Of a stretch of DNA of 64,000 bases, positions 5,170 to 63,076 are shown piece by piece. The notes under the pieces were generated by a model. The model ran no database searches, had not been told where the DNA came from, and saw only the letters and a list, made by a program, of their open reading frames with translations. The translations under genes and the position numbers were made by a program. Origin of the DNA: Euryarchaeota archaeon UBA62 (GTDB lineage: Archaea; Thermoplasmatota; Poseidoniia; Poseidoniales; Thalassarchaeaceae); assembly GCA_002502095.1 (NCBI GenBank), contig DAPJ01000028.1, positions 37,387-101,386 of the forward strand, written 5' to 3'. Numbering within the stretch: the stretch's first letter is position 1; each line of letters begins with the position of its first letter.

Positions 5170-7308
5170 ATGATTGAAACAATGAAATCTGAGGGTCGGA
5201 GAAGATATCCCTTTGCATTTCCAAGCTTTTTCTCGATCGTATTAATGTCATTACTAGTACTTTCCATCCCAGCTAATGCACAGGAGTACAGAAGTGGCTG
5301 GGACATTATTGACAGTGGCACCACAGAAGACCTCTATGCTGTAGAGTCACAAGGAAGTGAGATTTGGGCATTTGGAGAAAATGGGATAATGATAATGAGT
5401 TTAGATGGGGGACTGACTTGGGAAGTTAGCGAATCTCTAACATCATCTGATTTGACAATATCGAGCTCTGGCTATGGATCGTTCCTAACAGCTAGTAGTG
5501 ACGGTACAATTTTACTTAAGTCGGCCAATGATTCAGTATGGTCAGACATTACAAACGACTTCGGAAATGAGGGGATTCATGGTGCCTGCCTTACTGGTGT
5601 GTCTGAGTTGGTAATCGTTGGCGGAAATGGGACCATATGGACTTATGAGATGCAGGAGTGGACCAATCGTTCGGTTTCAGGATGGGATTTGTTAGACGTA
5701 TCTTTCTTGGATTCAGAAAGAGGAATTGCTGTCGGAGAACAGGGGACAATTCTATTCTCAGACGATGGCGGAGAATCCTGGGATTACAGAGATGCACCTT
5801 CAGAGGCTTCATCTTCAAGGATCACTGATATAGAGTTCTTCAGTGAAATTAGGGCATATGCTATTACAGACGAGGGAGGAGTCATCAAGTCTTCGAGAGA
5901 AATTAACACTGCAGTGGGATTTCTCTGGAATATGCAATATTTTGAGTCTGAGGGCAACTCAGATAATCTTGGAGAAAATCTAACATCGATAGAGATAGCA
6001 ACGACAAATAAATTTCTTCTTTCTGGCAAAGAGGGATACCTCTCTATGAGTAAAGACGGGGGCAATATAGTCACCAGACAGACCATACCCCTACATAATT
6101 CTACATCATTCAATGACATAACAATGATGGATAGTTTCAACGGTGTAGCAGTAGGCAGTAATGGATCCTTACTTCTGACGGAGAGATCTGGAGAGGACGA
6201 GCAGATTGGTTTTGAGGTTATGGACTTCTCAGAATTTGGAAACTTTGTAGACTACTCTAAGGGGATGTTGATTGATGGTTTGTTCGCTACAGTTAACATA
6301 GTAATGTTCGGAATTTTCCTCGGATTCTTCCTAGGTGTATCACTCTCAATGATGAAGACATCACCCACTACTTTGAAGGAAATTTCTCAGAAGAGAAGCC
6401 TAACAGTTGTAAGGGTCGCTGGAATCATCTTTACGGTTATTGGAGTATCCCTTCTGAGGCACCTAGTTCCCATAATTAGAAATCTAGGATTGGATGGTTG
6501 GGAATATATTTACGCCCCGATTGGAATCATTAACCCTGATGGAATAACAGGGGATCTACAATTCGAAAACTTCCTATTTCTGATACTAGGAATTAGTCTC
6601 TTACTTTTGGGAATACTCTTCGCTTCGGCGAATGGCGAGTATAAGAAATCCCATTTCAATATCATAGGCAGGGATATTATTTGGAATCCCTGGGGAGTCA
6701 GGCCTCTAAATTTCGTTGCAACTATTTATACAGATATTTTTAGAAATACTCCATTGATTGTACAGTTTTTATTCATACATTTCGGAGTCCAGATAGGTGC
6801 GTTAATCGGAGACCCTGGTGCAGAGATGTTAGAAGATTCAAGTAACTTTATTCTATCATTCTTGAGAGATGATATTCTTTCTAACAGGGCATGTGTTAGT
6901 GCTATTTTTGCGTTAGGACTGAACTCTGGAGCGTATCAATGTGAGACCATTAGAGGAGCTATCTCGGCTATACCTTCTGGACAGATGGAAGCGGGAAGAA
7001 GTATAGGTCTGAATTATATGCAGACAATGAGACTTGTAATAATGCCTCAAGCCATTAGGATATGCATTCCTCCGATGGGTAACGAGATGGTAAATCTAGT
7101 ACTAAACTCGTCACTTGCCATGGTTATAGGCTATTCCGAGCTTACTCGAAAGGCCAAGCTAATCAACGCTGTGACTTTCCAGGTATTCTGGTCTTATGGA
7201 ATGGTCTTAGTTTCCTACTTTATCGTTACATGGACACTAGCATTATTCCTAAGATACTTGGAGAATAAAACTAGGATTCCTGGACTTGGAATATCCGGAG
7301 GAAGCTGA
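5170..7308 (+). CDS. Fusion protein: signal/anchor + BNR/Ycf48-like beta-propeller + polar amino-acid ABC transporter permease (HisM/GlnP family)
   Basis: The N-terminal third carries BNR-type motifs SLDGGLTWEV, SDDGGESWDY and SKDGGNIV. The C-terminal half has the permease signature FRNTPLIVQFLFIHFG and the EAA loop EAGRSIGLNYMQTMRLVIMPQAIR, with multiple TM helices. Confidence 0.85.
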   Translation: MIETMKSEGRRRYPFAFPSFFSIVLMSLLVLSIPANAQEYRSGWDIIDSGTTEDLYAVESQGSEIWAFGENGIMIMSLDGGLTWEVSESLTSSDLTISSSGYGSFLTASSDGTILLKSANDSVWSDITNDFGNEGIHGACLTGVSELVIVGGNGTIWTYEMQEWTNRSVSGWDLLDVSFLDSERGIAVGEQGTILFSDDGGESWDYRDAPSEASSSRITDIEFFSEIRAYAITDEGGVIKSSREINTAVGFLWNMQYFESEGNSDNLGENLTSIEIATTNKFLLSGKEGYLSMSKDGGNIVTRQTIPLHNSTSFNDITMMDSFNGVAVGSNGSLLLTERSGEDEQIGFEVMDFSEFGNFVDYSKGMLIDGLFATVNIVMFGIFLGFFLGVSLSMMKTSPTTLKEISQKRSLTVVRVAGIIFTVIGVSLLRHLVPIIRNLGLDGWEYIYAPIGIINPDGITGDLQFENFLFLILGISLLLLGILFASANGEYKKSHFNIIGRDIIWNPWGVRPLNFVATIYTDIFRNTPLIVQFLFIHFGVQIGALIGDPGAEMLEDSSNFILSFLRDDILSNRACVSAIFALGLNSGAYQCETIRGAISAIPSGQMEAGRSIGLNYMQTMRLVIMPQAIRICIPPMGNEMVNLVLNSSLAMVIGYSELTRKAKLINAVTFQVFWSYGMVLVSYFIVTWTLALFLRYLENKTRIPGLGISGGS

Positions 7309-8049
7309 ATGAGCAATGTACTAACAATTGTAGATATGCACAAGACATATGCTGGTGGAGTTCATGCAGTACGAGGGGTTTCATTTGATGTTAATCAGGG
7401 CGAATCAGTAGCCATAATTGGTTCGTCGGGAAGTGGCAAGTCTACGGTATTAAGATGTATTAACAGGCTAATTGAGCCGACTGAGGGAGAAGTAAGACTT
7501 CGTGGGAACCTGATTAATACTCCCTCAGCAGATATTAATGATGTAAGATCTAGAATTGGGATGGTCTTCCAGTCATTCGAGCTATTTTCTCACCTTAGAG
7601 TCATTGATAATATCACTCTTGGACTAAGGCATGTTAAGAAAATGAGCAAAAGAGAAGCTGAGGCTGAGGCTCTTGAGGTTCTGGAAAAGGTAGACATGCT
7701 AGACAGAAAGGATGCTTTTCCGGGAAATCTATCTGGAGGGCAGAAGCAACGTGTCGCTATTGCTAGAGCGCTTGCAATGAAGCCTGAAGTAATGTTATTT
7801 GATGAGCCCACGAGTGCTTTGGATCCAGAATTGATTGGCTCGGTTCTGAAAACTATCAGAGGACTGGCCGATGAAGGCATGACAATGATAGTCGTAACAC
7901 ACGAGATAGGCTTCGCTAGAGACGTGGCAGACAGAGTGATCTACATGGACAAGGGGCTAATAGCGGAATCTGGGAAGTCATCAATCATAGATAATCCAAA
8001 AACCGAACGTCTGAAGAGGTTCTTGTCTTCCATCACAGAGGAAGACTAG
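7309..8049 (+). CDS. Polar amino-acid ABC transporter ATP-binding protein (GlnQ/HisP type)
   Basis: Walker [10 protein letters not shown], signature [15 protein letters not shown], Walker [12 protein letters not shown] and H-loop VTHE are present. The ATG directly follows the permease stop. Confidence 0.93.
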
Positions 8050-13518: not shown

Positions 13519-14032
13519 TGAGCAATGGGTTCATGCCAGACCGTCTCTTCCGAAGGTCATGGAATGGGTCAAAGTTTCGATAGGGGAAAAGGATAGTGAC
13601 GTTCCTAAGATGCCTACACTTTCAGGATCATACGATGGCTTGGACTCTGATGCCTCGTCCTCGCATCAAAAATTCTTTACAAATATTCCTCACATGACAG
13701 AAGTGATTGAAAATCATGAAAGGTCTACAGGAAAAGTATTGCTTCCCGGGAATGACTCAATGGGCGGTTATGAATCGATTAAATCATTTGAAGAGAGAGT
13801 CACTGTAATCGGTGCTGAGTCTCTGGGGGATGGATTACAGATACCTCTATCTAAATCTGTCAGAGAAGAGGTGCTTCTTCAAGAGGCAACTACTGAATCA
13901 GGGCAGTTAATCAGATTGGTTGCTCCGGAAAAATTTGGAGGCAGGGTAGAGTCATTCAAGCTACCAACTGGAACTACCTTGAATGAGGCTTTCTGGGATG
14001 GAGATAGGTTGAAAATCACCTTCAACTACTAA
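13508..14032 (+). CDS. Hypothetical protein; the C-terminal ~80 aa may be an HSP20/p23-like beta-sandwich
   Basis: The TTG start overlaps the XPD end, and an alternative ATG at 13559 gives MEWVKVS. The C-terminus RVESFKLPTGTTLNEAFWDGDRLKITF resembles the alpha-crystallin domain end (F-x-R-x-x-x-LP...A-x-x-x-nG-x-L-x-I). This is a weak call. Confidence 0.5.
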   Translation: MRSSEQWVHARPSLPKVMEWVKVSIGEKDSDVPKMPTLSGSYDGLDSDASSSHQKFFTNIPHMTEVIENHERSTGKVLLPGNDSMGGYESIKSFEERVTVIGAESLGDGLQIPLSKSVREEVLLQEATTESGQLIRLVAPEKFGGRVESFKLPTGTTLNEAFWDGDRLKITFNY

Positions 14033-17000
14033 TCCTCGATTATTTTTCCTTTGGACCTTAGTGGAACTTCCTCTAATTGATCAATTTCTTGTAATACCGA
14101 GTTAAGAGCCATTTGCGCACTTTCCCTATGTTGGTTTCCTAGAACGTGACTTGAGTACCTCGCTTCTTCGAATATCCTATCAAGGGATAGTAACGCCTGT
14201 TCGCTTATTGGAAGTGCGCTTCTGATTGCCATTTCGAATTCTCTTACGGTTTCGAAATCTCTTCTGAGGAATCCTCTGCTCATTAGTATCTTACAAAGTC
14301 CTTCATAGCAATTGAATATCGCTTCCCTAACTTCGTCTCCAGCCGCTAGAAGTTCTGCAGTGTAGCTAAAGACACCAGCCAATTCATCAATAGCGGCCTT
14401 CTTTCTATTTCTTATGGTGACTACTAGAGCGGAAACTCCGATCATAAATACGACCAGAAGAATTGATATTATTGCCGGCCTCAGTAGGGAGTCGGAAGCT
14501 TCTGCTTGATAGTTTATGTTGACCTCACTAAACTGGGCAAGTTGAGTTGCATTGACTGGGTCAATAATATCCGAGTCAGAGCTAAACTCAATTTTCAACT
14601 CGCCCCAGAAATCCCTATCCCAAAATGAGTGGTCATCATGGAATGATTCGAACTGATAGTTGAAAATTCCATTCATATCAGTCATCCCAACGACGGTAAA
14701 GAGAGTATCCGTATCATTAGTTAGTCTGGCAGTAATTGAGACTCCCTCAACAGGAGGGGCACGATTATCATCAGAAGCAGTTACGTTGATTTTTCCAGAA
14801 ATCTTAGACTGTCCTCTTTCGATGAAGATTTTATCGGGAATGAATTCGAAGTCTACACTAACTAGAATCTGTAGATCAAATTCAATTGATGCCCCATTCA
14901 GGAACCTCTCAGCATCTGGTTCAACATCAATTGTGAAGATAGAATTACCAGGAGGCATGTATGTCTTTGCATTGGAAGTAATCAGGAACTGTCCTGTAGC
15001 TTGATCCCATGAAATAATTGCATTGGGCTCAAGAGATCCCTCCCACAGGAGTGACATTTCCATCTCTTCCATAGTATTTCCGTCTCCCCCAATTTCTAGT
15101 ACTCTGCCTCTGACCCTGATTGGCCTAGATTCATCGCTTCTAACTACCTCATCAGAGATTAGGAGTATTTCCACATTGATATCCGCTCTTGAGAAAACAG
15201 TAGTATTTGTTGAATCGGATAGATATAGTTCCTCTCCGTAGAAATTGACTGAAACTAGGTGAGCTCCGCGAGATATAGAGTATCCTAGTTCGTGCGTGAA
15301 TGAGAAAGTCCCATCCGCTCCAGTAGTCACCACTAGTATCTCAATGCCATCCAATAGGAATGAGACCTCCCTATTCTCTAATCCAGGGGTACCGGGAGTA
15401 TCAGAATCATATAGCCTTCCAGAGAAGTTCCACGTACCGCCCCTAGTTGCTACACTATTCTCGACATTCAGGGTAATCGTAGTATGATACGCAATTGTGA
15501 GATTTGTTTCTACAGAGGTCTGACGATAGTAACCTTGGTCAGGAGATATTACAGTTACAGGGTGGACTCCCACATCGAGGAATTCGGAGACTACCCAAGA
15601 AAGATGCCAACTACCATCTTCTTCGGTCACTGTAGTCCCTATCAATATACCATCAACAAATATCTGTAGTGAGTGATTTGAAAGCCAACCATCGGGAAGA
15701 TTATCCCTGACGTTCCCCCTTAGATTCAGTACGTCTCCAACCGCGACTGGCATTGGATCTTCCACGGTCAGGGTTGTTGGAGAGAACACAGTGAATATTG
15801 TTGTTGAGTTTGAGCCAAGAATAAATTCCTCTCCCTGGAATAATAACGTAACTTCCCTTGGTCCGAGAAGCATATCGGAAGGAACGGGGAAGAATAGGCT
15901 GAATGAGCCGTTTCCATCTACATTGAGTGATGTCAGCATTTGACCATTCATGTAAGCTTCAAGGGCCCTATTTGGAAGAGGTCTTCCGGCTCCATCGGTT
16001 AAAATTCCTTCAATCAGCAAGAGTTCATTTCTATCTATTTCTCCCTGAGGAGTAGTTAGGACCACCTGTGAAGTCTGCGTTACATTGAATGGAGAGGTAA
16101 TGATTGAAGATAGGTAATACTCTGGATTCAGCGAGTCTCCTTGCCCCATTGGATCCACCCATGTAAAGCCACCTAGGAACTCAATACTGAATGTATGCTG
16201 ACCATAGTCCATGTCAAGTGGAAGATCGTATGTGATTTGCCATGTCCCAGATGTGGAGTTTGAAACGTCAATATACAGTGGACCTACATCGATTCCATCT
16301 ATGTAAAGATGGACAACTCCCCCCTTTGGAGAACCGTCCTCTACTAAGGGTAATCCGCGCTCATCTAAGAGAGTGCCACTGAATATCACACGCTCCCCTG
16401 CTACGGCAGAGCCAGAGATATTCGACACTTCTATGACAGTTGGAGCCAGGATGATTATCCTAGTCCATGTTTGGTCTCCGGATAAGCCAGTAGTTCCATT
16501 GATTCCATCAAAAACTGCCGTCACAGTCATCGGACCTGGAACTCTATTTGGGTCCGTTGACAGGTTTGTATTAATTAGGCCATTTGAATCTGTAAATCCT
16601 GACCAAGTCTCGATTCCATCCACTAGGATTTTGACTTCCACATTACCAACATTTTCTCCAGCATTGTCCATTATCGAAATATTGAGATTTAATGGGTCTC
16701 CTCTGATAGTTCTTGCATCGGGATCCAAATCGGTTGGATCAATGATAGAAATCATTGAGAAGCCCCTACTATCGAAGGTTCCATTGCTCGAGCTTGAGCT
16801 GTAGTAGTTTACAGTGGGCGTGTAAGTTGCCGAGATGTTGTGAGTCCCTCTCGGGAATGTCATATCCAAGAAAATCCTGGCTGACCAACTACCGTTAGAA
16901 TCAACAGCTCCACCAGATACTGAGAATCCAGTAGAAACATTATCGATCATGAAGGTAAGACTCGGCGAGAGTGGATTTCCTGACCTATCAACAATTCCGC

Positions 17001-20000
17001 TACCGTTACTCGAAGTTAGATTTCCAGATACATCAAGGAAATCACCTGCAGTCGGGTTGGCGGTGATGGGACTAAATGATATAGAGGTCGGAGATCTAAC
17101 AATGATCGTGTTAATGTACGTGAATGAAGTATGCAGAGTCTCAGTTCCATTCGATCCATTAAACATGAGCATGACTGAAATCGCCCCCAAAGGATGAGAG
17201 TGCGGGACATCGAATGAGAAATTTACGTATCCACCAGAATTGGAAGAAATCTCAGATGTCATCCAGGTATCATGGAATTTGGCGGATACGTTCATTCCGG
17301 CGATTTCTCTATCATTATTAGATGACTCTGCGAGCTTGGCCCCGAAGGAAACCGAGGACCCTCGATCCACTATTGTATTTATCAGTGGGACCCGATCAAT
17401 GAATTGAACAACCCCCCTTACCAAAATTGAATCAGAACCTGTCCCAGTCAAGTAGAAAGGACTACTCCCATTTTCAACGCTAACTACGACCGTCTTGAGT
17501 CCGTTTGAAACCCCGTCTCCTAATGGATCGGTCGGTACAGAAATTGAAAATGTCCCATTAGGAGAAGTTGCGAAACCGGTTACTAGCTTCTCACTAGGAT
17601 CATTGAGGAAGAATATCTCTATTGAGACTGGTCCACTAACTGTCCTATTGATGTCGAAGGAATCCATTACTTTACCTGTTACTAGGAATGACTGCCCTGC
17701 AGTTACTTCGGGAAGAGGGGAGTTATCTATCCGGACGTTGCTAACAACCTGAACTGTCAGGTTCATGTAGCTCTCATTGGCAAGCCATCTGCCTGCATCT
17801 TGAGATTCTAGTGAGTCGGTTAAGTCGTCTGGAGCCAGGATAAGAACGTCATAGTACCCAGGAGGAGCATCGCTGGGTATCGTTGACTGGAATTCAACAA
17901 CACCATCATTTCCAGTGACAGAGGTATTCAATAACTGCTGAAGAGGACCACCCCAATCGAAGTATATTTCCACAGTAGCGTTAGATAGCCTCTCGTTGCT
18001 CTCAATATCCCTGACTGTAGCTGAAGCGGACAGATTTTCTCCTGCGACCACTATTGCGCTAGTATTGGTAGATTGAACATCGAACATTGTCTGTATCCCA
18101 ATATCGAGAGAGTTTTCGGTAGCAGGATCGAAGAAGTAGGGTATTCCGCCCGGTGAGTTCTTTTCGAAGTCTAAGACCAGAATCGCCTGATATACTCCAG
18201 AGCCAATCCCACTAGGCATCGAGAACGATATGTTGTATTCTCCAGTGGTAGTATCTAACCACTCTGATCCCAATGTATACCTATCTGGAGGAAGAGGGTT
18301 GCCATCTGGTCCAGCAGGTAGGCTTGATGGGACATCCAAGAACAGGGAGACAGAGGTATTGTTGCCTAAGACAGTGGAATTCAAATCGGAATCGATTACT
18401 GATCCTGAGATCCATGTAGTGTTGCCCATTGGTACCCACTCGGTACCAAGATTGAAAATCGGCGAAGCCCTACCTTGAATCCTGACATTGTCGGTTGTTT
18501 GGTTAGGACTAATCCAAGTAGAACCATTGTAGCTCAATACCCAAGGATAGTCACCTGCAGGAGTTGTCAACGATGGAGACCAAGAAGGTACTATTTTGGG
18601 AACATCCGGATCCGAGATATTCCAAACTTCGGTTTCATTGACAGACAGGGAGAAGAAGCCTGGGAAGGTGGTGATTTCTGCTCCAGTGTGATCGGATAGG
18701 GAGACTAAGATATCAGATGTGGATCCTTTAGGGGCTGGAATCATAGTGTAATTGAACACGATGTAGCTCTTTATGCCATGTTGGTCAACTACAGTGGTTT
18801 CATCCTTTGCGAAAAGCTGATCGGCCAGATATTGATACCTTATCTCAACAAGTCCCGCGGGAATAGGGACATCAGAATCAAGGAAAGTCCAATTCACGGC
18901 GAATTGTCCAGGATTAGAGAGCCAGTCACTATCATTAAGATACCAGGAGTTGAGGGTCTGGAAAGGAGCATTAGTACCAGATCTCCTCATCTGTAATGTC
19001 AATGTCCCATTCAGAGACTCTGGGATCTCAGATTTGCTGAGGGCGGTACCGTTGAGGTAAATTCTGTTATTAATCTCAAGTACTGTATTGTTCAATCCCT
19101 GACCTTCAAGTGAAACAGTCAGGTTTGGAGCCTGTGTAAGATTCAGATTGATTGTTTCTGAGTATGGCCTGATGTGGAAAACAGGACCAGATGCATTGTT
19201 TAGATCGAACTGATGCCAACCGGTGTAATCAAGTGTGGCTGGAATAAGTCCTTCTTGCTCGCTTTCGTTGATAGAAACTGTGAACTCGAAATATCCCCCT
19301 GGTCCGATACTGGATATCAGGCTGACTGGACCATCTTGAGAAGTAGTATAATTCATCAGTATCTGCATGCTATCAATAAGCGAAATATCATTGTAAGGTA
19401 TATTCTCGAGAGAGACTGAACCAGTAATGGTAGTATTGACACCTATTCCTATTTTTGGCTCTGTGATTGGCCGAGGCTCACTTAAAGAGAGGGTGATATC
19501 ATCGGTAATATTTACGTTCCAACCTGAGAAAATACCTTGTGAGCCCACATAATCAAGTGTCTTAGTCATTATAACCAATGAGGAATTTCCCGGATTAACC
19601 GCTTCAGTGGGCATACCCGTGATATTGAATGAGCCATTGGAGTCAGTTACAGCCGTGCCTACAAGATGCTGAGAAACTGCCGCCAAGCCTGGTATTTGAT
19701 TGGTCATATTTGATTCAACGAGATACATCTCAACGCCTACTCCTGCGACGGATGTCTGATTATCTGTGAACCTTAGAGTGCCGTTCATCCATATCGACTG
19801 GCCAGATAGGTCTCTGTCCAACCATAGTGGGCCCCAAGACTCATCTGTTACCTCAACTAGTGACATTGCAGGACAGGCCTCGAATGGAATCCATCCCAAA
19901 TCTGCATTTCCAAGATTTTGGTTTGTTTGTAAGTGAACCTCTACCCACGAAGAGAAGTCTTTTCCATAAACCTCGAAAGCTTCACCGTTCCAATAACCTC

Positions 20001-23000
20001 CAGAGAACCCCGTTACCTTCCTCACAGGGATATCAGCAGTTCTTAGCATGACGGCAAAGAGCGAAGTAAATTGGTCACAGCTTCCCTCAAATGAATTATT
20101 GAGAATCCAATATGCCATATCAGACTCTTCTCCTAAACCAGTTATTTCCCCTAATGATGGAATATTGGTTCCATTGTTATTTCTCAGGAATGTAATTGTG
20201 TCATTACCTTCTGTGATGAAGTCAGCTATGGCAGATACTTTATCCCATGCCGATAACGCTCCGGATTCATTGATTATCGATTGTGTTATTCCGGAGACGA
20301 ATTCATTCATATTGCCCCTTGAAGTAAAGATTGGAGGAAGATCTGTAGCATAGTCAGATCCAGTAAACACAGTAGAGTTATCTCTGATTGCCTGAGTGAT
20401 GTTTACTTGTGGAGTAGTGATAAACATTGTATCAATCGGAGAACTGTCTACGATTATATCCCTTGTGAAATTAGAAAAATTCAGCCCTGCAGTTGGATCA
20501 GTCCAACCTGTGAAATTTACCGTATTGTGGGGCAGAATAAGCTCCTCCCCGATATCAGCCACTCCCGGTCCTCTGTAACTAATCTCCCAGCCCATTAGGG
20601 TTGAGTTATCCCAGAATTGCTGATCTGAGACCCCTTGTGTAGTAGAGAATCCGGGCACCATTTCAGTATTGCCTACAAGAGAGGTATTTACGCCCCATGA
20701 TATCCCAGTGTATTGATCGTACGTGTGCCATCTCCAGTAAATTGTATTCTCAGGGTTTAGTATAGATGATTGATTTGTGGCATAGAGGTAAATGGAATTA
20801 GGGGAAATATCATCTGACGGATCCCAGGGATTGTTCGGAGAGTCTTCACACTGGCCGTCCCAGTAGTCCGAGGTACACTCCTGTCCGTCTGGGACACCCC
20901 CTCCATCAGTATCGGGATCTCTCCAGTCAGTTCCAGTAGAGTTTTCGATTGTATCTGGGATTCCATCTCCATCCGTGTCTACCGGATTTCTATCATCATT
21001 AGGGTTATCTTGAGGATTTGTACCATCAATATATTCTTGGAAATCTGTCACACCTCCATTATCGGTATCTGACAAATTCCACAGGGTGAAGTAAGTATCG
21101 TTAGTGAAGTTCCCCCCCATGCCAGGAAACAATACTACGCATCCTGTTGTATTTTCAAAGTAATTATTCAATCCATCCCCATCGGAGTCAAGTAGGTTTT
21201 CACACGGGTCCAGAGGGTCAGTACCGTTTAGGATTTCATCTAAATCCTCTACTCCGTCCGAATCGGTATCCACAAGATTTGGATTGGTGGGGAATCCCCA
21301 TGTGGACAGGTACTCTTCCCAGTCGGCGAGTCCGTCACCATCTGAATCGGAGTAATCATCGTCACAAATTGGATCATTAACTGCCCCTACAGTAGCATCC
21401 CAACACCACGAAAAGTTAGTGAAGAGGACTGTGGAAGTATTGGCCGGCAGGTCAACGTTAACGCTTCTTAGTACGTCTGAATCTATACTTTCATATCTGA
21501 ACTCTACTAGAGTCCCATTAGATTGAACATAATACGCCATTGGAGCATCTGTCTGTCTCCAATCCAGAGGTGATTGATCCAATTCAGAAGTCGAGTTGAG
21601 AGTCAGAGAAGATGTGACTGCATCCCAACCAACTATTTGGAGAGTAAGTTCCTCTTCTGATAAGCAGGGATCAGAGTTATGGAAAGGTAGAATCTCATCA
21701 CCGTCGGATACCCCTCCACCATCTGTATCGAAAACGTTCCAAAGTGTGCATGTCATATTCTCCTCCCAATTTTGAATACCATCCCCATCAAAATCTCCTG
21801 CATCCTCTATCCTAGTTGGATCAGTTTCGTTCATATCCACTATGCCATTGCCATTGAGATCCTCCTCCCCATCGTCAAATTGATCCCCGTCTGTATTGTT
21901 ATTCCTAGGGTCGCTAGCTTGTGGCGGATCTCCATACTGACCATTGACCTCAACTCCATCTTCTATGCCATCAGAGTCAGTATCGACAGAGGTAGGGTCT
22001 GTTAAGAGAATTAATGCCTCATACGAGTCATTAAGTCCGTCTCCATCAGTATCGTTTGACTGAGGATCAGTGGACGTAATGCCATCTACCTCCGCAGTTA
22101 GAAATTGACATCCCCCTGGTCCCAGTGACAATACCGGATTACAAGGCGATTCGGTTGCAGTCATGGCTAGTGGACCGGGTCTGAAATACTGAGTAGGAGG
22201 AGTTGTAGAGCCATTTCTAGTCCCCCAAGCCGGATTGACATATTCCTTCAGATTGATTAGTCCATCGCCATCTGGATCCCCAAATGTACCATCCATATTA
22301 CTGTTAGATGTCGGATCTAATCCATTAGCGGCTTCCCATCCATCGGGCATTCCATCTCCATCAGTGTCCCATCCATCTGGGTCCTCGTCGGCGATACCAT
22401 CCCCGTCATCATCATCACTAGAGCAGTTAGCATCACCATCCCCATCTCCATCAAAGTTATCCACCATTCCATCTTTATCGTCGTCAAATGTGTTGAAGCA
22501 AATATTTCCCCTAGGATCTTCATCTGCACCATCAGAATTTAGACCTTGAATGAGTTGCATGGCACTTTCTTCATCCCAATCCCTGACTGGAACGGTTCCA
22601 TTCCACCATACTCCATTATCTAGAACGTTTGGAGTAGATGGCAAATCCCAGCCAGAGGGCATAGAGTATTGATACTCATTGAGATTGGTAAATGCATCTC
22701 CATCCGGATCTCCAGTAGATCCATTATCTCCGTTTTGAGATAGAGGATTTAGTCCATACTGCCACTCCCACCCGTCTGGAAGTCCGTCGTTATCAGAGTC
22801 CCAGTCTTGAGGTTGTGTATTGATGTAGAATTCGAGACCGTAGGATAGTCCGTCTCCATCCTGATCTGAAGACGCTAAAGCCTCCCAAGCACTGAACTCC
22901 AACGCAGAATAGGAAGACAGTAGCATCAAGAGTGAGAATGTAATTGCTGAGCGGTGTTTTCTGGCCGACTTCGCATCTTTTGAAAGATTCACAATAGAGC

Positions 23001-23013
23001 CCACGCTACTCAC
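14029..23013 (-). CDS. Giant (2994 aa) secreted surface protein: TSP3-like Ca-binding repeats, transglutaminase-like core, long array of Ig/CarboxypepD_reg-like modules, single TM, cytoplasmic DUF4129-like domain
   Basis: This is a single uninterrupted ORF. It has an N-terminal hydrophobic signal (ITFSLLMLLSSYSALEF) and D-x-D-x-D-G repeats. The TGase-like core is GSCDQFTSLFAVMLRTADIPVRKVTGF. T-D-x-N-G-x-F modules recur along the ectodomain. The TM helix is AIISILLVVFMIGVSALVVTI and the tail ends ...LDRIFEEARYSSHVL. Confidence 0.9.
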   Translation of the reverse strand: MSSVGSIVNLSKDAKSARKHRSAITFSLLMLLSSYSALEFSAWEALASSDQDGDGLSYGLEFYINTQPQDWDSDNDGLPDGWEWQYGLNPLSQNGDNGSTGDPDGDAFTNLNEYQYSMPSGWDLPSTPNVLDNGVWWNGTVPVRDWDEESAMQLIQGLNSDGADEDPRGNICFNTFDDDKDGMVDNFDGDGDGDANCSSDDDDGDGIADEDPDGWDTDGDGMPDGWEAANGLDPTSNSNMDGTFGDPDGDGLINLKEYVNPAWGTRNGSTTPPTQYFRPGPLAMTATESPCNPVLSLGPGGCQFLTAEVDGITSTDPQSNDTDGDGLNDSYEALILLTDPTSVDTDSDGIEDGVEVNGQYGDPPQASDPRNNNTDGDQFDDGEEDLNGNGIVDMNETDPTRIEDAGDFDGDGIQNWEENMTCTLWNVFDTDGGGVSDGDEILPFHNSDPCLSEEELTLQIVGWDAVTSSLTLNSTSELDQSPLDWRQTDAPMAYYVQSNGTLVEFRYESIDSDVLRSVNVDLPANTSTVLFTNFSWCWDATVGAVNDPICDDDYSDSDGDGLADWEEYLSTWGFPTNPNLVDTDSDGVEDLDEILNGTDPLDPCENLLDSDGDGLNNYFENTTGCVVLFPGMGGNFTNDTYFTLWNLSDTDNGGVTDFQEYIDGTNPQDNPNDDRNPVDTDGDGIPDTIENSTGTDWRDPDTDGGGVPDGQECTSDYWDGQCEDSPNNPWDPSDDISPNSIYLYATNQSSILNPENTIYWRWHTYDQYTGISWGVNTSLVGNTEMVPGFSTTQGVSDQQFWDNSTLMGWEISYRGPGVADIGEELILPHNTVNFTGWTDPTAGLNFSNFTRDIIVDSSPIDTMFITTPQVNITQAIRDNSTVFTGSDYATDLPPIFTSRGNMNEFVSGITQSIINESGALSAWDKVSAIADFITEGNDTITFLRNNNGTNIPSLGEITGLGEESDMAYWILNNSFEGSCDQFTSLFAVMLRTADIPVRKVTGFSGGYWNGEAFEVYGKDFSSWVEVHLQTNQNLGNADLGWIPFEACPAMSLVEVTDESWGPLWLDRDLSGQSIWMNGTLRFTDNQTSVAGVGVEMYLVESNMTNQIPGLAAVSQHLVGTAVTDSNGSFNITGMPTEAVNPGNSSLVIMTKTLDYVGSQGIFSGWNVNITDDITLSLSEPRPITEPKIGIGVNTTITGSVSLENIPYNDISLIDSMQILMNYTTSQDGPVSLISSIGPGGYFEFTVSINESEQEGLIPATLDYTGWHQFDLNNASGPVFHIRPYSETINLNLTQAPNLTVSLEGQGLNNTVLEINNRIYLNGTALSKSEIPESLNGTLTLQMRRSGTNAPFQTLNSWYLNDSDWLSNPGQFAVNWTFLDSDVPIPAGLVEIRYQYLADQLFAKDETTVVDQHGIKSYIVFNYTMIPAPKGSTSDILVSLSDHTGAEITTFPGFFSLSVNETEVWNISDPDVPKIVPSWSPSLTTPAGDYPWVLSYNGSTWISPNQTTDNVRIQGRASPIFNLGTEWVPMGNTTWISGSVIDSDLNSTVLGNNTSVSLFLDVPSSLPAGPDGNPLPPDRYTLGSEWLDTTTGEYNISFSMPSGIGSGVYQAILVLDFEKNSPGGIPYFFDPATENSLDIGIQTMFDVQSTNTSAIVVAGENLSASATVRDIESNERLSNATVEIYFDWGGPLQQLLNTSVTGNDGVVEFQSTIPSDAPPGYYDVLILAPDDLTDSLESQDAGRWLANESYMNLTVQVVSNVRIDNSPLPEVTAGQSFLVTGKVMDSFDINRTVSGPVSIEIFFLNDPSEKLVTGFATSPNGTFSISVPTDPLGDGVSNGLKTVVVSVENGSSPFYLTGTGSDSILVRGVVQFIDRVPLINTIVDRGSSVSFGAKLAESSNNDREIAGMNVSAKFHDTWMTSEISSNSGGYVNFSFDVPHSHPLGAISVMLMFNGSNGTETLHTSFTYINTIIVRSPTSISFSPITANPTAGDFLDVSGNLTSSNGSGIVDRSGNPLSPSLTFMIDNVSTGFSVSGGAVDSNGSWSARIFLDMTFPRGTHNISATYTPTVNYYSSSSSNGTFDSRGFSMISIIDPTDLDPDARTIRGDPLNLNISIMDNAGENVGNVEVKILVDGIETWSGFTDSNGLINTNLSTDPNRVPGPMTVTAVFDGINGTTGLSGDQTWTRIIILAPTVIEVSNISGSAVAGERVIFSGTLLDERGLPLVEDGSPKGGVVHLYIDGIDVGPLYIDVSNSTSGTWQITYDLPLDMDYGQHTFSIEFLGGFTWVDPMGQGDSLNPEYYLSSIITSPFNVTQTSQVVLTTPQGEIDRNELLLIEGILTDGAGRPLPNRALEAYMNGQMLTSLNVDGNGSFSLFFPVPSDMLLGPREVTLLFQGEEFILGSNSTTIFTVFSPTTLTVEDPMPVAVGDVLNLRGNVRDNLPDGWLSNHSLQIFVDGILIGTTVTEEDGSWHLSWVVSEFLDVGVHPVTVISPDQGYYRQTSVETNLTIAYHTTITLNVENSVATRGGTWNFSGRLYDSDTPGTPGLENREVSFLLDGIEILVVTTGADGTFSFTHELGYSISRGAHLVSVNFYGEELYLSDSTNTTVFSRADINVEILLISDEVVRSDESRPIRVRGRVLEIGGDGNTMEEMEMSLLWEGSLEPNAIISWDQATGQFLITSNAKTYMPPGNSIFTIDVEPDAERFLNGASIEFDLQILVSVDFEFIPDKIFIERGQSKISGKINVTASDDNRAPPVEGVSITARLTNDTDTLFTVVGMTDMNGIFNYQFESFHDDHSFWDRDFWGELKIEFSSDSDIIDPVNATQLAQFSEVNINYQAEASDSLLRPAIISILLVVFMIGVSALVVTIRNRKKAAIDELAGVFSYTAELLAAGDEVREAIFNCYEGLCKILMSRGFLRRDFETVREFEMAIRSALPISEQALLSLDRIFEEARYSSHVLGNQHRESAQMALNSVLQEIDQLEEVPLRSKGKIIED
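14032..14400 (-). other. Cytoplasmic DUF4129-like helical domain at the C-terminus of the giant protein (after the TM helix at 14413-14475)
   Basis: EAIFNCYEGLCKILMSRGFLRRDFETVREFEMAIRSALPISEQALLSLDRIFEEARYSSHVL follows the DUF4129 pattern (T-x-x-E-F ... E-x-A-R-Y-S). Confidence 0.6.
19865..20125 (-). other. Transglutaminase-like (papain-fold) core region of the giant protein
   Basis: G-S-C-D-Q-F (Cys codon at 20077-20079), followed by ...DIPVRKVTGFSGG...FSSWVEVH...LGWIPFEACP, matches the order of the TGase-core C / H / D blocks. Confidence 0.65.
20815..22866 (-). repeat. Coding array of about 17 thrombospondin type-3-like calcium-binding repeats (two blocks) within the giant gene
   Basis: Examples are DQDGDGLSYGLE, DSDNDGLPDGWE, DPDGDAFTNLNEY, DTDGDGMPDGWE, NDTDGDGLNDSYE, VDTDSDGIEDGVE, DFDGDGIQNWEE, DSDGDGLADWEEY, VDTDSDGVEDLDE, LDSDGDGLNNYFE, VDTDGDGIPDTIE and DPDTDGGGVPDGQE. 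Confidence 0.8.
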
Positions 23014-26169: not shown

Positions 26170-26255
26170 GCAGAGGTACCCGAGCTGGTCAAAGGGGCCG
26201 GACTTAAGCTCCGGTGCATAGTGCTTCGCAGGTTCAAATCCTGCCCTCTGCACCA
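26170..26255 (+). tRNA. tRNA-Leu (anticodon UAA), class II with long variable arm, genomically encoded CCA
   Basis: Folded by hand. Acceptor stem GCAGAGG/CCTCTGC. Anticodon stem CCGGA/TCCGG with loop CTTAAGC (TAA). Variable arm TGCATAGTGCTTC (GCA/TGC stem). T arm GCAGG-TTCAAAT-CCTGC. Discriminator A, then CCA. Confidence 0.93.
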
Positions 26256-36137: not shown

Positions 36138-37862
36138 GTGAGCGAATCCTCTGATTGGTCTGATCTGTCAGTATCTGAACTCAAAGACTCCCTCAGGGAA
36201 AGAGGGATGCCCGTTTCTGGGAGGAAGGAGGAGCTAGTTAGAAGACTGGAAGAAAATTCTATTTTTCAGGCTGAAATTGCTGATATTCCATCTCATAATA
36301 AGGGATTCAGAAGATTATTAGATAGGATTAGAGATTTACCATTTTCCACATTGGTTGTGATTTCGATACTAATTGTTGGCGGGTCTGGAGGAGCTGTTGT
36401 ATATGGTGATGAAATACTAGATTTTATCCAAGGGGATACAGAATATGTACTCCTTGATTTTGATACTGACAAGACCAGAGAATTCGCTCAGACGTTGGTT
36501 GATTTGGGACATCCTGAATGGGAAGGGAGAATGTCTGGAACCGTAGAAGAGGAAAATACGGCTAATGCGATTAAGAGTAATTTTACATCCATGGGGATAC
36601 CATCTACAATGGATGAATTTGATGTTAATATGTTTGAAATTGGAGAAGAGCCGGATTTATCCATATGTGTGCCAGGAGATATCGGGAATATTTTCGGAGG
36701 ACCAACACCCTGCTCAGCCGCTGATGTAAACAGGCAGATAACTCAATTCACCCATAGAGAAGACTATGTGATTCAGGGATACAGCGGATCCGTAGATATT
36801 TTTCATACTGAAAATGCTGATATTGTTGATCTAGGAAATGGTAGCGAAGACTCTGATTGGGCATCAGCTGCTAGTAAAATTGCCATGGTCTGGATAGAGA
36901 CAGGGACTGACGGGAATACTGATTTATTGGAGAGGGCCTTATCCAATGACGTTAATTCGATAATTACCGTAAACTCTCTGACTAATTGTAATGAGCTGGT
37001 GATGGATGATTGTGTCCCTTACTTCAAGGGCATAGATCTGACGAGATTTGATTTCATTCCAGACTCATTTGGATTCATAATGGTCTCCAAGAGCGTAGGT
37101 ACCGCGATATCCGATAGTGTCATCAATGGAGATGGGCGAATCCAGATGAGGATAGATGTGGATAATCAGGCTGTTTCAACCATATACGTCCCATGCGGAA
37201 TTATCGAAGGTAAGACTGATTCAATTATAGTTCTGGGAGCCCATCATGATACAGTATACAATGGACAAGGAGCAGTTGATGATAGTTCAGGAGTGGCGAC
37301 ATTACAGGAAATCGCCAGACAGTTTTCGATTCTTGAATCTAGTCTGGGAGAGCCTGAATATACGATTTACTTCTGTACATGGGGAGGGGAAGAAGAAGGG
37401 CTTTGGGGGTCCAAGGAATGGGTCGATAAGTATCGTAACATGCTCTCAGAAAACTTGCGTTTGACTATCAACCTAGATATGAATCATGTAGACTTGGAAA
37501 GGAATAACGGTCTGACTATCTATGGAAACAGTCCCAAGGATACGAAGATAGTCAGAGGAATCGCGGCGAAGTTTTCTGATGTTCATACTGACTTGTCATC
37601 AAAGTACAGCGTAAATGTGAATGAAATCCCGTCTACGGCTATGCCTTACAACTCGGATCACGCCCCCTTCGTCTATGAGATAGACAATCAACCAGACGAT
37701 GGTATGGAATACGGAAAGGCCCTAGTGTGCTATGGCTCTGGTTCCAGTGAGTACCACACTTATCTGGACACCATGGACCGATTCAATGAGGAAAGCTTGG
37801 CAGTCTCTGGGATAATATTAGGGTCATTCATCAGGTATCTTTCATACGGAGAGAGAGTCTAA
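36138..37862 (+). CDS. Membrane protein: N-terminal SAP/HeH motif + single TM + extracytoplasmic M28-family metallopeptidase
   Basis: The start is GTG. The SAP-like motif is LSVSELKDSLRERGMPVSGRKEELVRRLEE and the TM helix is FSTLVVISILIVGGSGGAVV. The M28 ligand blocks are LGAHHDTV, VDDSSGVATL and WGGEEEGLWGS. Confidence 0.8.
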   Translation: MSESSDWSDLSVSELKDSLRERGMPVSGRKEELVRRLEENSIFQAEIADIPSHNKGFRRLLDRIRDLPFSTLVVISILIVGGSGGAVVYGDEILDFIQGDTEYVLLDFDTDKTREFAQTLVDLGHPEWEGRMSGTVEEENTANAIKSNFTSMGIPSTMDEFDVNMFEIGEEPDLSICVPGDIGNIFGGPTPCSAADVNRQITQFTHREDYVIQGYSGSVDIFHTENADIVDLGNGSEDSDWASAASKIAMVWIETGTDGNTDLLERALSNDVNSIITVNSLTNCNELVMDDCVPYFKGIDLTRFDFIPDSFGFIMVSKSVGTAISDSVINGDGRIQMRIDVDNQAVSTIYVPCGIIEGKTDSIIVLGAHHDTVYNGQGAVDDSSGVATLQEIARQFSILESSLGEPEYTIYFCTWGGEEEGLWGSKEWVDKYRNMLSENLRLTINLDMNHVDLERNNGLTIYGNSPKDTKIVRGIAAKFSDVHTDLSSKYSVNVNEIPSTAMPYNSDHAPFVYEIDNQPDDGMEYGKALVCYGSGSSEYHTYLDTMDRFNEESLAVSGIILGSFIRYLSYGERV

Positions 37863-61546: not shown

Positions 61547-62992
61547 CTATGACTGATCGTCCTCAGTCATGGAGCCAAGATAGTCTGGCAACTCCACTCC
61601 TGACATCTTTGCAACGTCGTGTATTGGAGGTAGGCTCTGTACTAGGCTACTCACAAAGTTACTGGTAGCTGACGATCCTTCTGAGTTATTGCCACTGTCC
61701 CAAACAGTAATCTTGTCAATCTTCAAGTTCCTGATAGCCTCGGTTTGAGCGGCTACCATGTTCTCGATTTTCTCGACCATCAGTAGTGTGGCAGCCGCCT
61801 TTGGATCTCCTGAAGCGCTGGACACCAGATTGCTGTAACCTTGTGCCTTCGCATCGAGAACCTTCTGTATTCCTTCAGCTTCTGCTTCGTACTTCGCCAG
61901 TATTGCATCCGCCTCTCCCTTGGCGACTCTCCTCTGCCTCTCGGCTTCTGCATCTGCCTGTATCTCTATTTGCTGTTTCTGGATAGTGACCTGTACGATC
62001 TCACTTGCCTTCAATCTCTCCTCTTCCTCGGAGTAGAAAGCCTTCTGAATCTCTGCTTCAGCTTTAGCCTTGGCTACATCGGCCCTTTGCTTGGCGGACG
62101 CTTCTGCTTCCGCCAAATCTGCGTTTGCCCTGGCTATTTCGGCTTGGGCTGAGTTCTCTCCAGAAATTGCCATAGCCTCCTGCTGTTCTACGAATACACG
62201 CTGATCGGCCTCTGCGGCTTTTCTTCCCTTCTCTGCTGCGGCCATATTCTCAGCTACGGTGATTTCCCTCTCCTTGCTTGCGATAGCGGCGCCTATAGCT
62301 CCGTCCCTCTCTGCGTTGGCCACGTCCACTCTAGCATTCTCAACAGCAGTTGCCGCCGCCTTCTTACCAATACTCTCGATATAGTCAGACTCGTCTGTAA
62401 TGTCGACAATGTTGACGTTTAGCTGGGTTAATCCGAACTTCCTAAGCTCCTGATCGACGTTCTGAGTGATTAGGGATAGGAAAGCATCTCGATCTTGATT
62501 AATCTGCTCAATTGTTAGGGAGGCTACAGTAAGACGCAACTGACCCAGAATTATCTCCTCGGCTAGTTTCTCTATCTCTGGAATTTTGAATCCTAGAAGT
62601 CTCTCAGCTGCATTGGCCATGATGGAGGGTTCCTTGCTAACACCAACTGTAAATGTACTTGGAACGTTTATTCTGATATTCTGAAGGGATAGGGCACCTT
62701 TCAAATCGATATTAATTGGCATTGGCTTTAGAGATATATACGCATAATCCTGAATTAATGGCCAAACTAGTGCCGCTCCTCCGTGGACTACACGAGAAGG
62801 TTTAGCCTTTCCATCCGCTGCCTTAGCGGTTCTTCCATAGATTACCATCACCTGATCTGGCGGACATCTCTTGTATCTCTGAGCAAAGAATATTACGGCA
62901 GCCACCAAAACCAATATGATTGCGAAAATCATTATTGTTCCTATAGTTCCACCATCTGCTCCGTCTGCTTGCCTGAGCGTTGTCATTAACAT
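61547..62992 (-). CDS. Flotillin-like SPFH/band-7 protein
   Basis: Has the N-terminal TM IMIFAIILVLVAAVIFF, an SPFH domain, and a long Ala/Glu-rich coiled coil (AEADQRVFVEQQEAMA...AKAKAEAEIQKA). The ATG at 62992 has AGGAGTG 6 nt upstream. The ORF track start at 63031 is less likely. Confidence 0.88.
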   Translation of the reverse strand: MLMTTLRQADGADGGTIGTIMIFAIILVLVAAVIFFAQRYKRCPPDQVMVIYGRTAKAADGKAKPSRVVHGGAALVWPLIQDYAYISLKPMPINIDLKGALSLQNIRINVPSTFTVGVSKEPSIMANAAERLLGFKIPEIEKLAEEIILGQLRLTVASLTIEQINQDRDAFLSLITQNVDQELRKFGLTQLNVNIVDITDESDYIESIGKKAAATAVENARVDVANAERDGAIGAAIASKEREITVAENMAAAEKGRKAAEADQRVFVEQQEAMAISGENSAQAEIARANADLAEAEASAKQRADVAKAKAEAEIQKAFYSEEEERLKASEIVQVTIQKQQIEIQADAEAERQRRVAKGEADAILAKYEAEAEGIQKVLDAKAQGYSNLVSSASGDPKAAATLLMVEKIENMVAAQTEAIRNLKIDKITVWDSGNNSEGSSATSNFVSSLVQSLPPIHDVAKMSGVELPDYLGSMTEDDQS

Positions 62993-63076
62993 CCTGTTCA
63001 CTCCTGACTCTATGAGGCAGGCACAGGTCATGAACTCTTTCCCGAAAATTGAGAAAAATTAGGCTGGGGTGCGAAA

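Follow-up and report, generated by a model that had tools for sequence, protein, structure and literature searches.

A conserved giant surface protein of the TgpA/DUF4129 family in the uncultured marine archaeal order Poseidoniales

What purpose does a 9-kb gene serve in an archaeon of the surface ocean, when it is predicted to encode a single surface protein of nearly 3000 residues? The Poseidoniales are uncultured and belong to the most abundant surface-ocean archaea, and we know of no description of their cell surface to date. The question was raised by a 64,000-nt stretch of DNA from Euryarchaeota archaeon UBA62 (Poseidoniales; Thalassarchaeaceae; GCA_002502095.1, contig DAPJ01000028.1, positions 37,387-101,386), hereafter the window, in which one unbroken open reading frame (ORF) with a GTG start (14029..23013, minus strand) encoded a protein of 2994 aa, hereafter the giant. 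Our analysis indicated that the giant is an uncharacterised variant of the TgpA/DUF4129 family, a much enlarged derivative, and we see about an even chance that it serves as a structural, non-enzymatic core envelope glycoprotein of the Poseidoniales, forming part of a constitutive surface coat. Beyond what the original prediction for this DNA had stated, the gene is present in both families of the order (MGIIb and MGIIa), is accompanied by an obligate partner gene on its upstream side and evolves under strong purifying selection. No surprising mechanism was demonstrated; the interest of the locus is that of a constrained core gene in a globally abundant uncultured archaeal order.

The original prediction had read the locus as a single uninterrupted 9-kb ORF leading from an N-terminal signal or anchor through some 17 TSP3-like (thrombospondin type 3) repeats in two blocks, a transglutaminase (TGase) core and a long run of beta-sandwich modules with T-D-x-N-G-x-F motifs to one transmembrane (TM) helix and a DUF4129 tail, with many N-x-S/T sequons along the way. 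The frame held, and profile scans upheld the order: signal peptide, two TSP3 blocks, TgpA-like module, about 1750 aa of beta-sandwich domains, TM helix and DUF4129 domain, for which a type I membrane topology was predicted. The N-terminus comprised a K/R-rich n-region, the hydrophobic segment AITFSLLMLLSSYSAL and a site between ALA and SS at which the signal peptide is probably cleaved; the hydrophobic region and the WEA-x-A/G-S/T-S/T-D junction were kept in orthologues. A strict search for the predicted calcium-binding motif D-x-D-x-D-G gave 16 repeats, and a relaxed one 18, at aa 50-420 and 556-705, and each block, scanned alone, exceeded the Pfam gathering threshold (GA) of 25 bits for TSP3_bac (PF18884) with three matching stretches (scores in Table 1). 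The domain between the blocks (aa 422-552) had no Pfam match. Sequons numbered 94, against 37.6 +/- 5.5 in shuffled sequences, with none past the TM helix, and the ectodomain was strongly acidic (D+E 410 vs K+R 98). Signal peptide, sequons and C-terminal membrane anchor are, at the sequence level, features of an archaeal envelope glycoprotein. All 14 ectodomain Cys were invariant from MGIIb to MGIIa and were grouped as sequence-local pairs, and the additional Cys of MGIIa orthologues were likewise paired. Searches of PDB sequences with the whole giant and with its N-terminal region gave no usable match.

With the whole giant as query, a genome scan recovered 22 loci from genomes of the Poseidoniales (Marine Group II), full-length matches having 43-98% identity, and a tail-motif scan of species-representative genomes yielded at least 457 confirmed loci, the best 80 of which were essentially all Poseidoniales. 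The homology search mostly gave short fragments of the giant; full-length relatives were obtained by the representative search and by scanning genomes. In about 50 complete loci, single-cell genomes included, the stop-to-stop ORF measured 2979-3105 aa, and the long-read metagenome-assembled genomes (MAGs) LRMED-021, -022 and -030 carried the complete giant, in one case on a 1.6-Mb contig. The divergent relative P0137 was identified as the MGIIa (Poseidoniaceae) orthologue, represented by 41 loci with ORFs of 2963-3001 aa that were collinear with the window protein from end to end at 39-41% identity. Two other divergent relatives, P0142 and P0139, served as queries in genome scans that recovered no loci. 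Two contigs carrying the gene (PBAZ01000027.1 and CALDQY010000255.1) lay in MAGs labelled Chloroflexota and Rhodobiaceae, probably through binning errors. The original prediction had called the architecture uncharacterised. That stands as regards experimental characterisation; it fails in that the orthologues already bear public NCBI/JGI names ("transglutaminase domain-containing protein" or "DUF4129 domain-containing transglutaminase family protein") and that other giants of like plan exist.

The dN/dS ratio, computed between closely related genomes, was 0.03-0.04 for the whole giant, on a level with the adjacent metabolic enzymes (Table 1). Purifying selection acted on the whole fibre and was strongest at both ends, the TSP3 tip and the tail. 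Between MGIIb and MGIIa, TSP3 block 1 retained 71% identity with 37% of columns invariant, and block 2 retained 59%; the tail reached 85% identity within MGIIb and 60% between families. Identity between families fell to 39% in the TGase core, to 29-37% in the Ig-like regions and to 33% in the inter-block domain; the Cys of the latter were invariant. The membrane-proximal region (aa 2641-2845) was the least conserved part of the ectodomain, and the TM helix was the least conserved segment overall (17-32% identity, 17% between families). Constraint over the whole fibre that peaks at the ends is the opposite of what a typical variable adhesin exhibits, and a fast-evolving adhesin or antigen was ruled out by the low dN/dS.

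The surroundings of the gene, made up of housekeeping and metabolic genes, were conserved as well. At eight loci from both families the order was a 2-oxoacid dehydrogenase operon, lipoyl synthase (LipA), a short-chain dehydrogenase/reductase, (FolB), a gene of about 980-1040 aa, the giant, (a small ORF), XPD helicase, a ribbon-helix-helix gene, (HD) and glutamate dehydrogenase (GDH). G+C content was even across the region and, together with the synteny in both families, ruled out a horizontally acquired island. The gene directly upstream of the giant, encoding a partner of 981 aa in the window, adjoined it at every locus with an upstream flank, in MGIIb and MGIIa alike. The partner combined a signal peptide and a beta-rich ectodomain with a C-terminal TM helix, beyond which an acidic tail on the cytoplasmic side closed with DDDIELV; this motif was kept as (D/E)DD(I/L)EL(V/L) in 8/8 aligned orthologues of both families, and the partner was under stronger purifying selection than the giant (0.012-0.026 vs 0.03-0.04). 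Its sequons were not in excess. Pfam and NCBIfam assigned it to no family, with weak NPCBM_assoc and choice-of-anchor-T matches only, and PDB sequences gave no usable match. A tRNA-Leu(TAA) gene on the opposite strand sets the pair apart from FolB, and partner and giant probably have their own promoter. As the original prediction had noted, MoxR and DUF58 genes were not nearby: no ORF of at least 145 aa in the 64-kb window matched MoxR (AAA_3) or DUF58.

Kinship with TgpA was evident in the module between the TSP3 blocks and the stalk. Pfam Transglut_core (PF01841) matched aa 963-1046 with 40.8 bits (GA 23). An AlphaFold2 (AF2) model of aa 722-1085 (pLDDT 79.6, pTM 0.83) had as its top Foldseek match 6g49, the periplasmic domain of TgpA (E 2.5e-12, TMt 0.60, 323 aligned columns), with further matches to a Cytophaga cysteine protease, TG2, TG3 and FXIII, and a weak one to protein 4.2. 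P0131, a protein with TgpA_N, TGase and DUF4129 domains, aligned with the giant's 358-aa module at 21% identity over 83% of its length. Because of this structure match and this sequence alignment, the giant's module, including the beta-sandwich preceding the core, is a TgpA homologue, corresponding to TgpA residues 180-544. Modelling the segment, as had been proposed with the original prediction, thereby confirmed the suspected kinship with TGase+DUF4129 membrane proteins.

Homology of fold did not extend to the catalytic residues. In the phmmer alignment with 6g49, TgpA's "DAHAWVEY" stood opposite "DFSSWVEV", so that the catalytic His faced Ser1021. At this position, two residues ahead of the conserved Trp, His was present in 173/208 TGase-like domains from an exhaustive search, and giant-family members had S, T, N, D, A or L. 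Among the 57 unique orthologous cores of the Poseidoniales, the position held T (19), S (17), A (15), G (2), K, D, N or E, and His in 0/57. The original prediction had picked out the core by GSCDQF...SSWVEVH...GWIPFEACP; the core itself was confirmed by its profile score and TgpA fold, but the His of SSWVEVH is not the catalytic one. Position 1027, His in the window protein, was H, R or K throughout the family and hence always basic, which ruled out His1027 as a relocated catalytic His. Cys979, in turn, was retained in every giant-family core tabulated and in 17/17 aligned orthologues, and a helix of the AF2 model began there (model residue 258), placing the nucleophile at the helix N-terminus as in active enzymes. 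The acid position, Glu1045 here, held E in 27 cores, D in 25, Q in 3, N in 1 and H in 1 (E/D in 52/57), and Glu also occurred there in canonical TgpA-like domains. Two residues past the acid position, about 100 other domains had Thr, and 57/57 Poseidoniales cores had Cys (Cys1047). Cys979 and Cys1047 were the sole Cys across about 2100 aa of ectodomain. Given the invariant, pairwise Cys pattern and the co-occurrence of both residues, they probably form a disulfide spanning the former active site. The geometry would be plausible, as the equivalent Thr360 of human TG2 lines the active-site tunnel near Cys277. With the canonical His position never occupied by His in the family, the catalytic triad is degenerate, and the core is probably a non-enzymatic pseudo-enzyme.

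Between this module and the membrane, the sequence was filled by predicted beta-sandwich domains of varying recognisability. In region A (aa 1061-1650), CarboxypepD_reg, MG2 and Big_6 all remained under threshold and profile self-matches were weak. Further on, Big_3_5 exceeded its threshold at three places (46.9, 42.3 and 36.6 bits), and hhalign self-comparison of the profile resolved about 10 homologous domains of 100-110 aa over aa 1650-2640 (probability 90-98%); the beta-rich stretches on either side had diverged further. A hidden Markov model of one Ig-like domain recovered its siblings weakly; profile-profile comparison was required. The TD-x-NG-x-F-type motif occurred 10 times against 2.5 expected. 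Apart from the signal peptide, the giant had one hydrophobic segment, the predicted TM helix at aa 2846-2868. DUF4129 (PF13559) scored 29.1 bits for the tail alone (GA 24.8) and 22.6 bits, below GA, in the whole-protein scan; it matched 33/33 homologous tails (best E 9.5e-11). Invariant motifs of the tail included FLRRDFETVREFE and FEEARYS. An AF2 model of the tail (pLDDT 84.9) had five helices, the TM helix extending unbroken into a compact bundle that contained the other four. Comparison of this model with PDB folds gave generic four-helix bundles only (best E 0.23), and a literature search on DUF4129 found no experimentally known function. The single TM helix and the DUF4129 tail of the original prediction are thereby borne out.

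Table 1. Positions in the window of the giant's domains, its partner and other genes discussed in the text, with dN/dS between closely related genomes where determined
Feature	Residues (aa)	Position (nt)	Strand	dN/dS	Remarks
Signal peptide region	1-48	22870..23013	-		n-region rich in K/R, then h-region AITFSLLMLLSSYSAL; cleavage probably follows EALA
TSP3 block 1, membrane-distal tip	49-421	21751..22869	-	0.00-0.01	D-x-D-x-D-G matches; TSP3_bac 38.8 bits
Inter-block domain	422-552	21358..21750	-		Cys pairs 422/450 and 537/550
TSP3 block 2	553-722	20848..21357	-		TSP3_bac 35.0 bits
TgpA-like module	723-1060	19834..20847	-	0.04-0.11 (transglutaminase core; highest in giant)	beta-sandwich + transglutaminase-fold core; Cys979, Ser1021 (His position), Glu1045 (Asp position), Cys1047
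Divergent beta-sandwich region A	1061-1650	18064..19833	-		weak profile matches; putative fold
About 10 homologous Ig-like (Big_3_5-type) domains	1651-2640	15094..18063	-		Big_3_5; hhalign self-comparison
Ig-like regions				0.03-0.06	
Membrane-proximal ectodomain	2641-2845	14479..15093	-		weak Big_1 match only
Single TM helix	2846-2868	14410..14478	-		hydropathy peak 2.98; RNRKK on cytoplasmic side
Cytoplasmic DUF4129 helical bundle	2869-2994 + stop	14029..14409	-	0.00-0.03	motifs FLRRDFETVREFE and FEEARYS; CxxxxC pair
Partner gene	981 aa	23083..26028	-	0.012-0.026	69 nt upstream of giant, same strand
tRNA-Leu(TAA) gene		26170..26255	+		between FolB and partner
E1-alpha				0.026-0.064	
LipA				0.065-0.084	
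XPD				0.04-0.08	
GDH				0.012-0.014	
Small convergent ORF	174 aa	13508..14032	+	0.2-0.3 (MGIIb)	4-nt overlap with giant's 3' end
Second large surface protein	1158 aa	38..3514	+		
Beta-propeller/permease fusion		5170..7308	+		
ABC ATPase gene		7309..8049	+		
SAP-domain + M28 peptidase fusion		36138..37862	+		
Flotillin/Band 7 gene		61547..63031	-		

Taken together, these features suggested how the giant might work. It would be exported by its signal peptide and retained by its single C-terminal TM helix. About 17 beta-sandwich domains may form a heavily N-glycosylated stalk that lifts the TgpA-like module and, further out, a calcium-loaded TSP3 region off the membrane. The transglutaminase-fold module, its catalytic His lost and its Cys979 probably locked with Cys1047 as a disulfide, would no longer catalyse and could serve as a binding or assembly scaffold. 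The essential work would fall to the two most constrained parts. At the TSP3 tip, the fibre may bind itself, the co-encoded 981-aa partner or some other fixed ligand through a conserved calcium-dependent interaction, and the DUF4129 bundle would anchor or assemble it by docking onto a conserved partner in the cytoplasm. Giant and partner would then be part of a constitutive surface coat or adhesive canopy rather than a variable, niche-specific adhesin or an enzyme.

Several observations weigh against an envelope component of this kind. Bacterial giants with TSP3 and Ig-like domains are typically adhesins, and 320 kDa is unusually large for a lattice-forming envelope subunit. Cys979 was strictly kept and Glu/Asp1045 mostly so, which may reflect a non-canonical catalytic or redox function, and residue 1027 was basic in all cores. 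MoxR and DUF58 may be encoded elsewhere in the genome and act on the giant all the same. Rinke et al. 2019 (PMC6461757) read the "thrombospondin genes" of Poseidoniales as adhesion genes. A calcium-dependent giant adhesin, with TSP3 tip and Ig-like stalk binding particles, phytoplankton surfaces or cells for attachment or aggregation, would fit that literature (also PMC8821943, PMC4511931), the resemblance of the repeats to those of Myxococcus MtsD and CglD, the typical adhesin anatomy of an extended Ig-like stalk held in the membrane at its C-terminus, and the flotillin gene in the same window. Adhesins, however, are usually variable in sequence, in presence and in the number of repeats, and they often lie in variable islands, whereas the giant's length was invariant, each domain was orthologous and dN/dS was 0.03-0.04; its distal tip, far from being the most variable part, was the best conserved, and the gene occurred in both families, though papers describe many such lineages as mainly free-living. 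We consider a dedicated adhesin unlikely, and note that it overlaps with the constitutive coat, which can be sticky as well. The outside-in idea of the original prediction, developed here as a ligand or load that would be relayed through the TM helix to DUF4129 and switch a cytoplasmic partner, would be in keeping with a tail second in conservation only to the TSP3 tip, with the continuity of TM and bundle helices in the AF2 model, and with a layout of ectodomain TGase module, TM helix and DUF4129 that was kept from TgpA to the giant and suggests that both sides cooperate; for bifidobacterial TGase proteins linked to MoxR/DUF58, authors have speculated about a part in signal transduction (PMC6803598). 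Yet the giant had no recognisable output domain (kinase, cyclase or DNA-binding), the conserved neighbourhood lacked a signalling gene, the bundle had no fold match to known signalling modules, and the poorly conserved TM helix would be unusual in a transmitter of conformational signals. Anchoring, sorting or assembly explain the conservation of the tail equally well, and a sensing device appeared distinctly improbable.

Catalysis on a stalk fared no better. An active TgpA-type transglutaminase, protease or amidase could use Cys979 with His/Arg/Lys1027 as base or with Glu1045, and the invariance of Cys979 and its place at the N-terminus of the predicted core helix, the acidic residue in 52/57 cores and the transglutaminase activity of the TgpA periplasmic domain in vitro (PMC3507681) would all be in keeping with it. 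The canonical His, however, was missing from a position that drifts freely over T, S, A, G, K, D, N and E, position 1027 was not a conserved His, and the core was under the weakest purifying selection of the whole protein. In addition, Cys979 is one of two Cys in about 2100 aa, the other Cys were all paired, and Cys1047 is family-specific; we hold an active enzyme to be very doubtful. The concern that the ORF is an artefact, produced by repeat collapse or gene joining, has some general basis in that giant repeat-rich genes are frequently misassembled, and frame breaks did occur in a few orthologous loci (L007/L028, L044, L093, L122 and L134). In L122 (JAYQHX010000002.1, long-read), the breaks extended to the partner, XPD and GDH, which points to residual indel errors rather than a pseudogene; in L134 (JBJLBB010000002.1, long-read), they affected the giant alone. 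More than 50 independent assemblies, long-read and single-cell assemblies included, contained the same collinear ORF of about 2980-3000 aa, and the Ig-like domains were too diverged for collapse. Because collinear orthologues of near-constant length were present in both families, in long-read MAGs and in single-cell genomes, the giant is not an artefact, and the chance of a chimera or repeat collapse is practically nil. The comparisons suggested with the original prediction thus settled its own worry: length was nearly fixed, synteny was kept in both families, and the LRMED MAGs gave an intact ORF.

Several other genes of the window deserve description. Downstream of the giant, a convergent 174-aa ORF overlapped its 3' end by 4 nt; it was weakly conserved (24-27% identity between MGIIb genera) and had no Pfam or NCBIfam match. 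A second large surface protein near the start of the window had choice-of-anchor-T, NPCBM_assoc, FixG_C and Ig_VWA7-like beta-sandwich matches; after it came a 208-aa ORF that matched no family. In an unusual fusion, an ABC permease domain (BPD_transp_1) was combined with a beta-propeller ectodomain of the BNR/Asp-box type (PSII_BNR-like); an ABC ATPase gene directly followed, and another ORF fused a SAP domain to an M28 peptidase. The flotillin/Band 7 gene lay towards the far end of the window; Poseidoniales papers tie a flotillin marker to adhesion or aggregation.

An envelope role for the giant would matter in several respects. If genome size is taken from the largest contig with the gene, about 1.6 Mb, its 9 kb amount to about 0.5% of the genome, and its fixed length, together with selection like that on central metabolic enzymes, points to a key part of the envelope. 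A protein in that role would be a candidate virus receptor or a mediator of contact with particles or algae, a candidate glycoprotein source of dissolved organic matter, and a target for the enrichment of Poseidoniales cells by antibodies or lectins. In addition, the giant can be read as an experiment of nature on the TgpA/DUF4129 family, a family that Pseudomonas cannot live without. It has lost the catalytic His yet retains, under strong constraint, the connection between TM helix and DUF4129, which suggests that this connection, rather than catalysis, may hold the family's conserved function. More speculatively, giant and partner could together build the Poseidoniales cell envelope, the giant as a calcium-stiffened, glycan-coated fibre with a disulfide-locked pseudo-transglutaminase as assembly hub; its DUF4129 bundle would link the coat, by physical or allosteric coupling, to a conserved cytoplasmic partner, perhaps the acidic DDDIELV tail of the 981-aa protein; we offer this as a tentative and on balance unlikely extension. 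If true, it would provide the first functional handle on a widespread, unexplained family.

Among known systems, TgpA (PDB 6g49/6g4h) is the closest. P. aeruginosa depends on TgpA (PA2873), an inner-membrane protein whose transglutaminase domain lies in the periplasm and is active in vitro; its gene is co-transcribed with PA2875 and PA2874 (PMC3507681), and MoxR genes often precede a DUF58 gene and a transglutaminase gene (PMC6803598). Both proteins have an extracytoplasmic beta-sandwich and transglutaminase-fold module followed by a TM helix and a C-terminal cytoplasmic DUF4129, an order found also in P0171 and P0160, and the giant keeps the nucleophile Cys and has Glu at the position of the acidic third residue. 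Unlike TgpA, the giant has no polytopic TgpA_N (DUF3488; PF11992 had no match in the Pfam scan), carrying instead a signal peptide and about 680 aa with TSP3 repeats; it has about 1750 aa of beta-sandwich domains between module and TM helix, has lost the catalytic His and gained a Cys at Asp+2, has no MoxR/DUF58 operon in the window, and is archaeal and probably N-glycosylated. The metagenomic giants P0153 (2801 aa; four TGase cores, HEAT, CarboxypepD_reg, Big_1, DUF4129) and P0160 (1446 aa; TgpA_N, two TGase cores, Fn3_arc, DUF4129) likewise join TGase cores and beta-sandwiches of the CarboxypepD_reg, Big_1, Big_3_5 or Fn3_arc type to a C-terminal DUF4129, so that a TgpA module on a stalk is not unique to the giant. 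They differ in their two to four TGase cores with a mostly canonical Cys-His-Asp/Glu triad, and neither has a TSP3 cap. P0153, P0156, P0164, P0175 and others formed a separate family of 2000-3100 aa with three or four TGase cores and a mostly canonical triad. Inactive transglutaminase folds serve as scaffold or binding modules in erythrocyte protein 4.2 and Rad4/XPC, which are eukaryotic, cytoplasmic or nuclear, and of unrelated lineages; protein 4.2 lost its Cys, whereas the giant lost its His and keeps a Cys that is probably oxidised.

Surface proteins offered a second set of comparisons. The Myxococcus proteins CglD (gliding adhesion) and MtsD (cell-cell cohesion) share with the giant tandem D-x-D-x-D-G-x-x-D repeats of the calcium-binding type, over which NCBIfam gave partial matches (E 8e-24 and 1e-18, respectively). 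The repeat region alone matched, at 83 vs 400 bits and 67 vs 800 bits for the equivalog cut-offs, and both lack the TGase module, Ig-like stalk and DUF4129; with scores so far under the cut-offs, membership of the giant in either family was rejected. Of the traits of giant repeat adhesins, the long tandem Ig-like stalk was present, and variable repeat number, rapid evolution and patchy distribution were not. Poseidoniales papers refer to generic "thrombospondin genes" as adhesion markers only (PMC6461757, PMC8821943). Literature searches found no work on transglutaminase in Marine Group II and none specific to its S-layer or metaproteome, and a Red Sea metatranscriptome paper did not mention the giant's gene. 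Archaeal surface glycoproteins anchored at the C-terminus are represented by the Haloferax S-layer glycoprotein, Staphylothermus tetrabrachion and the glycoprotein coat of the Thermoplasma membrane. The giant had no sequence or profile similarity to S-layer families, is much larger than S-layer glycoproteins and has a structured cytoplasmic domain. In common with these proteins, it has a signal peptide, potential for heavy N-glycosylation, an acidic ectodomain and a C-terminal anchor, and it is encoded by a core gene that is probably constitutive.

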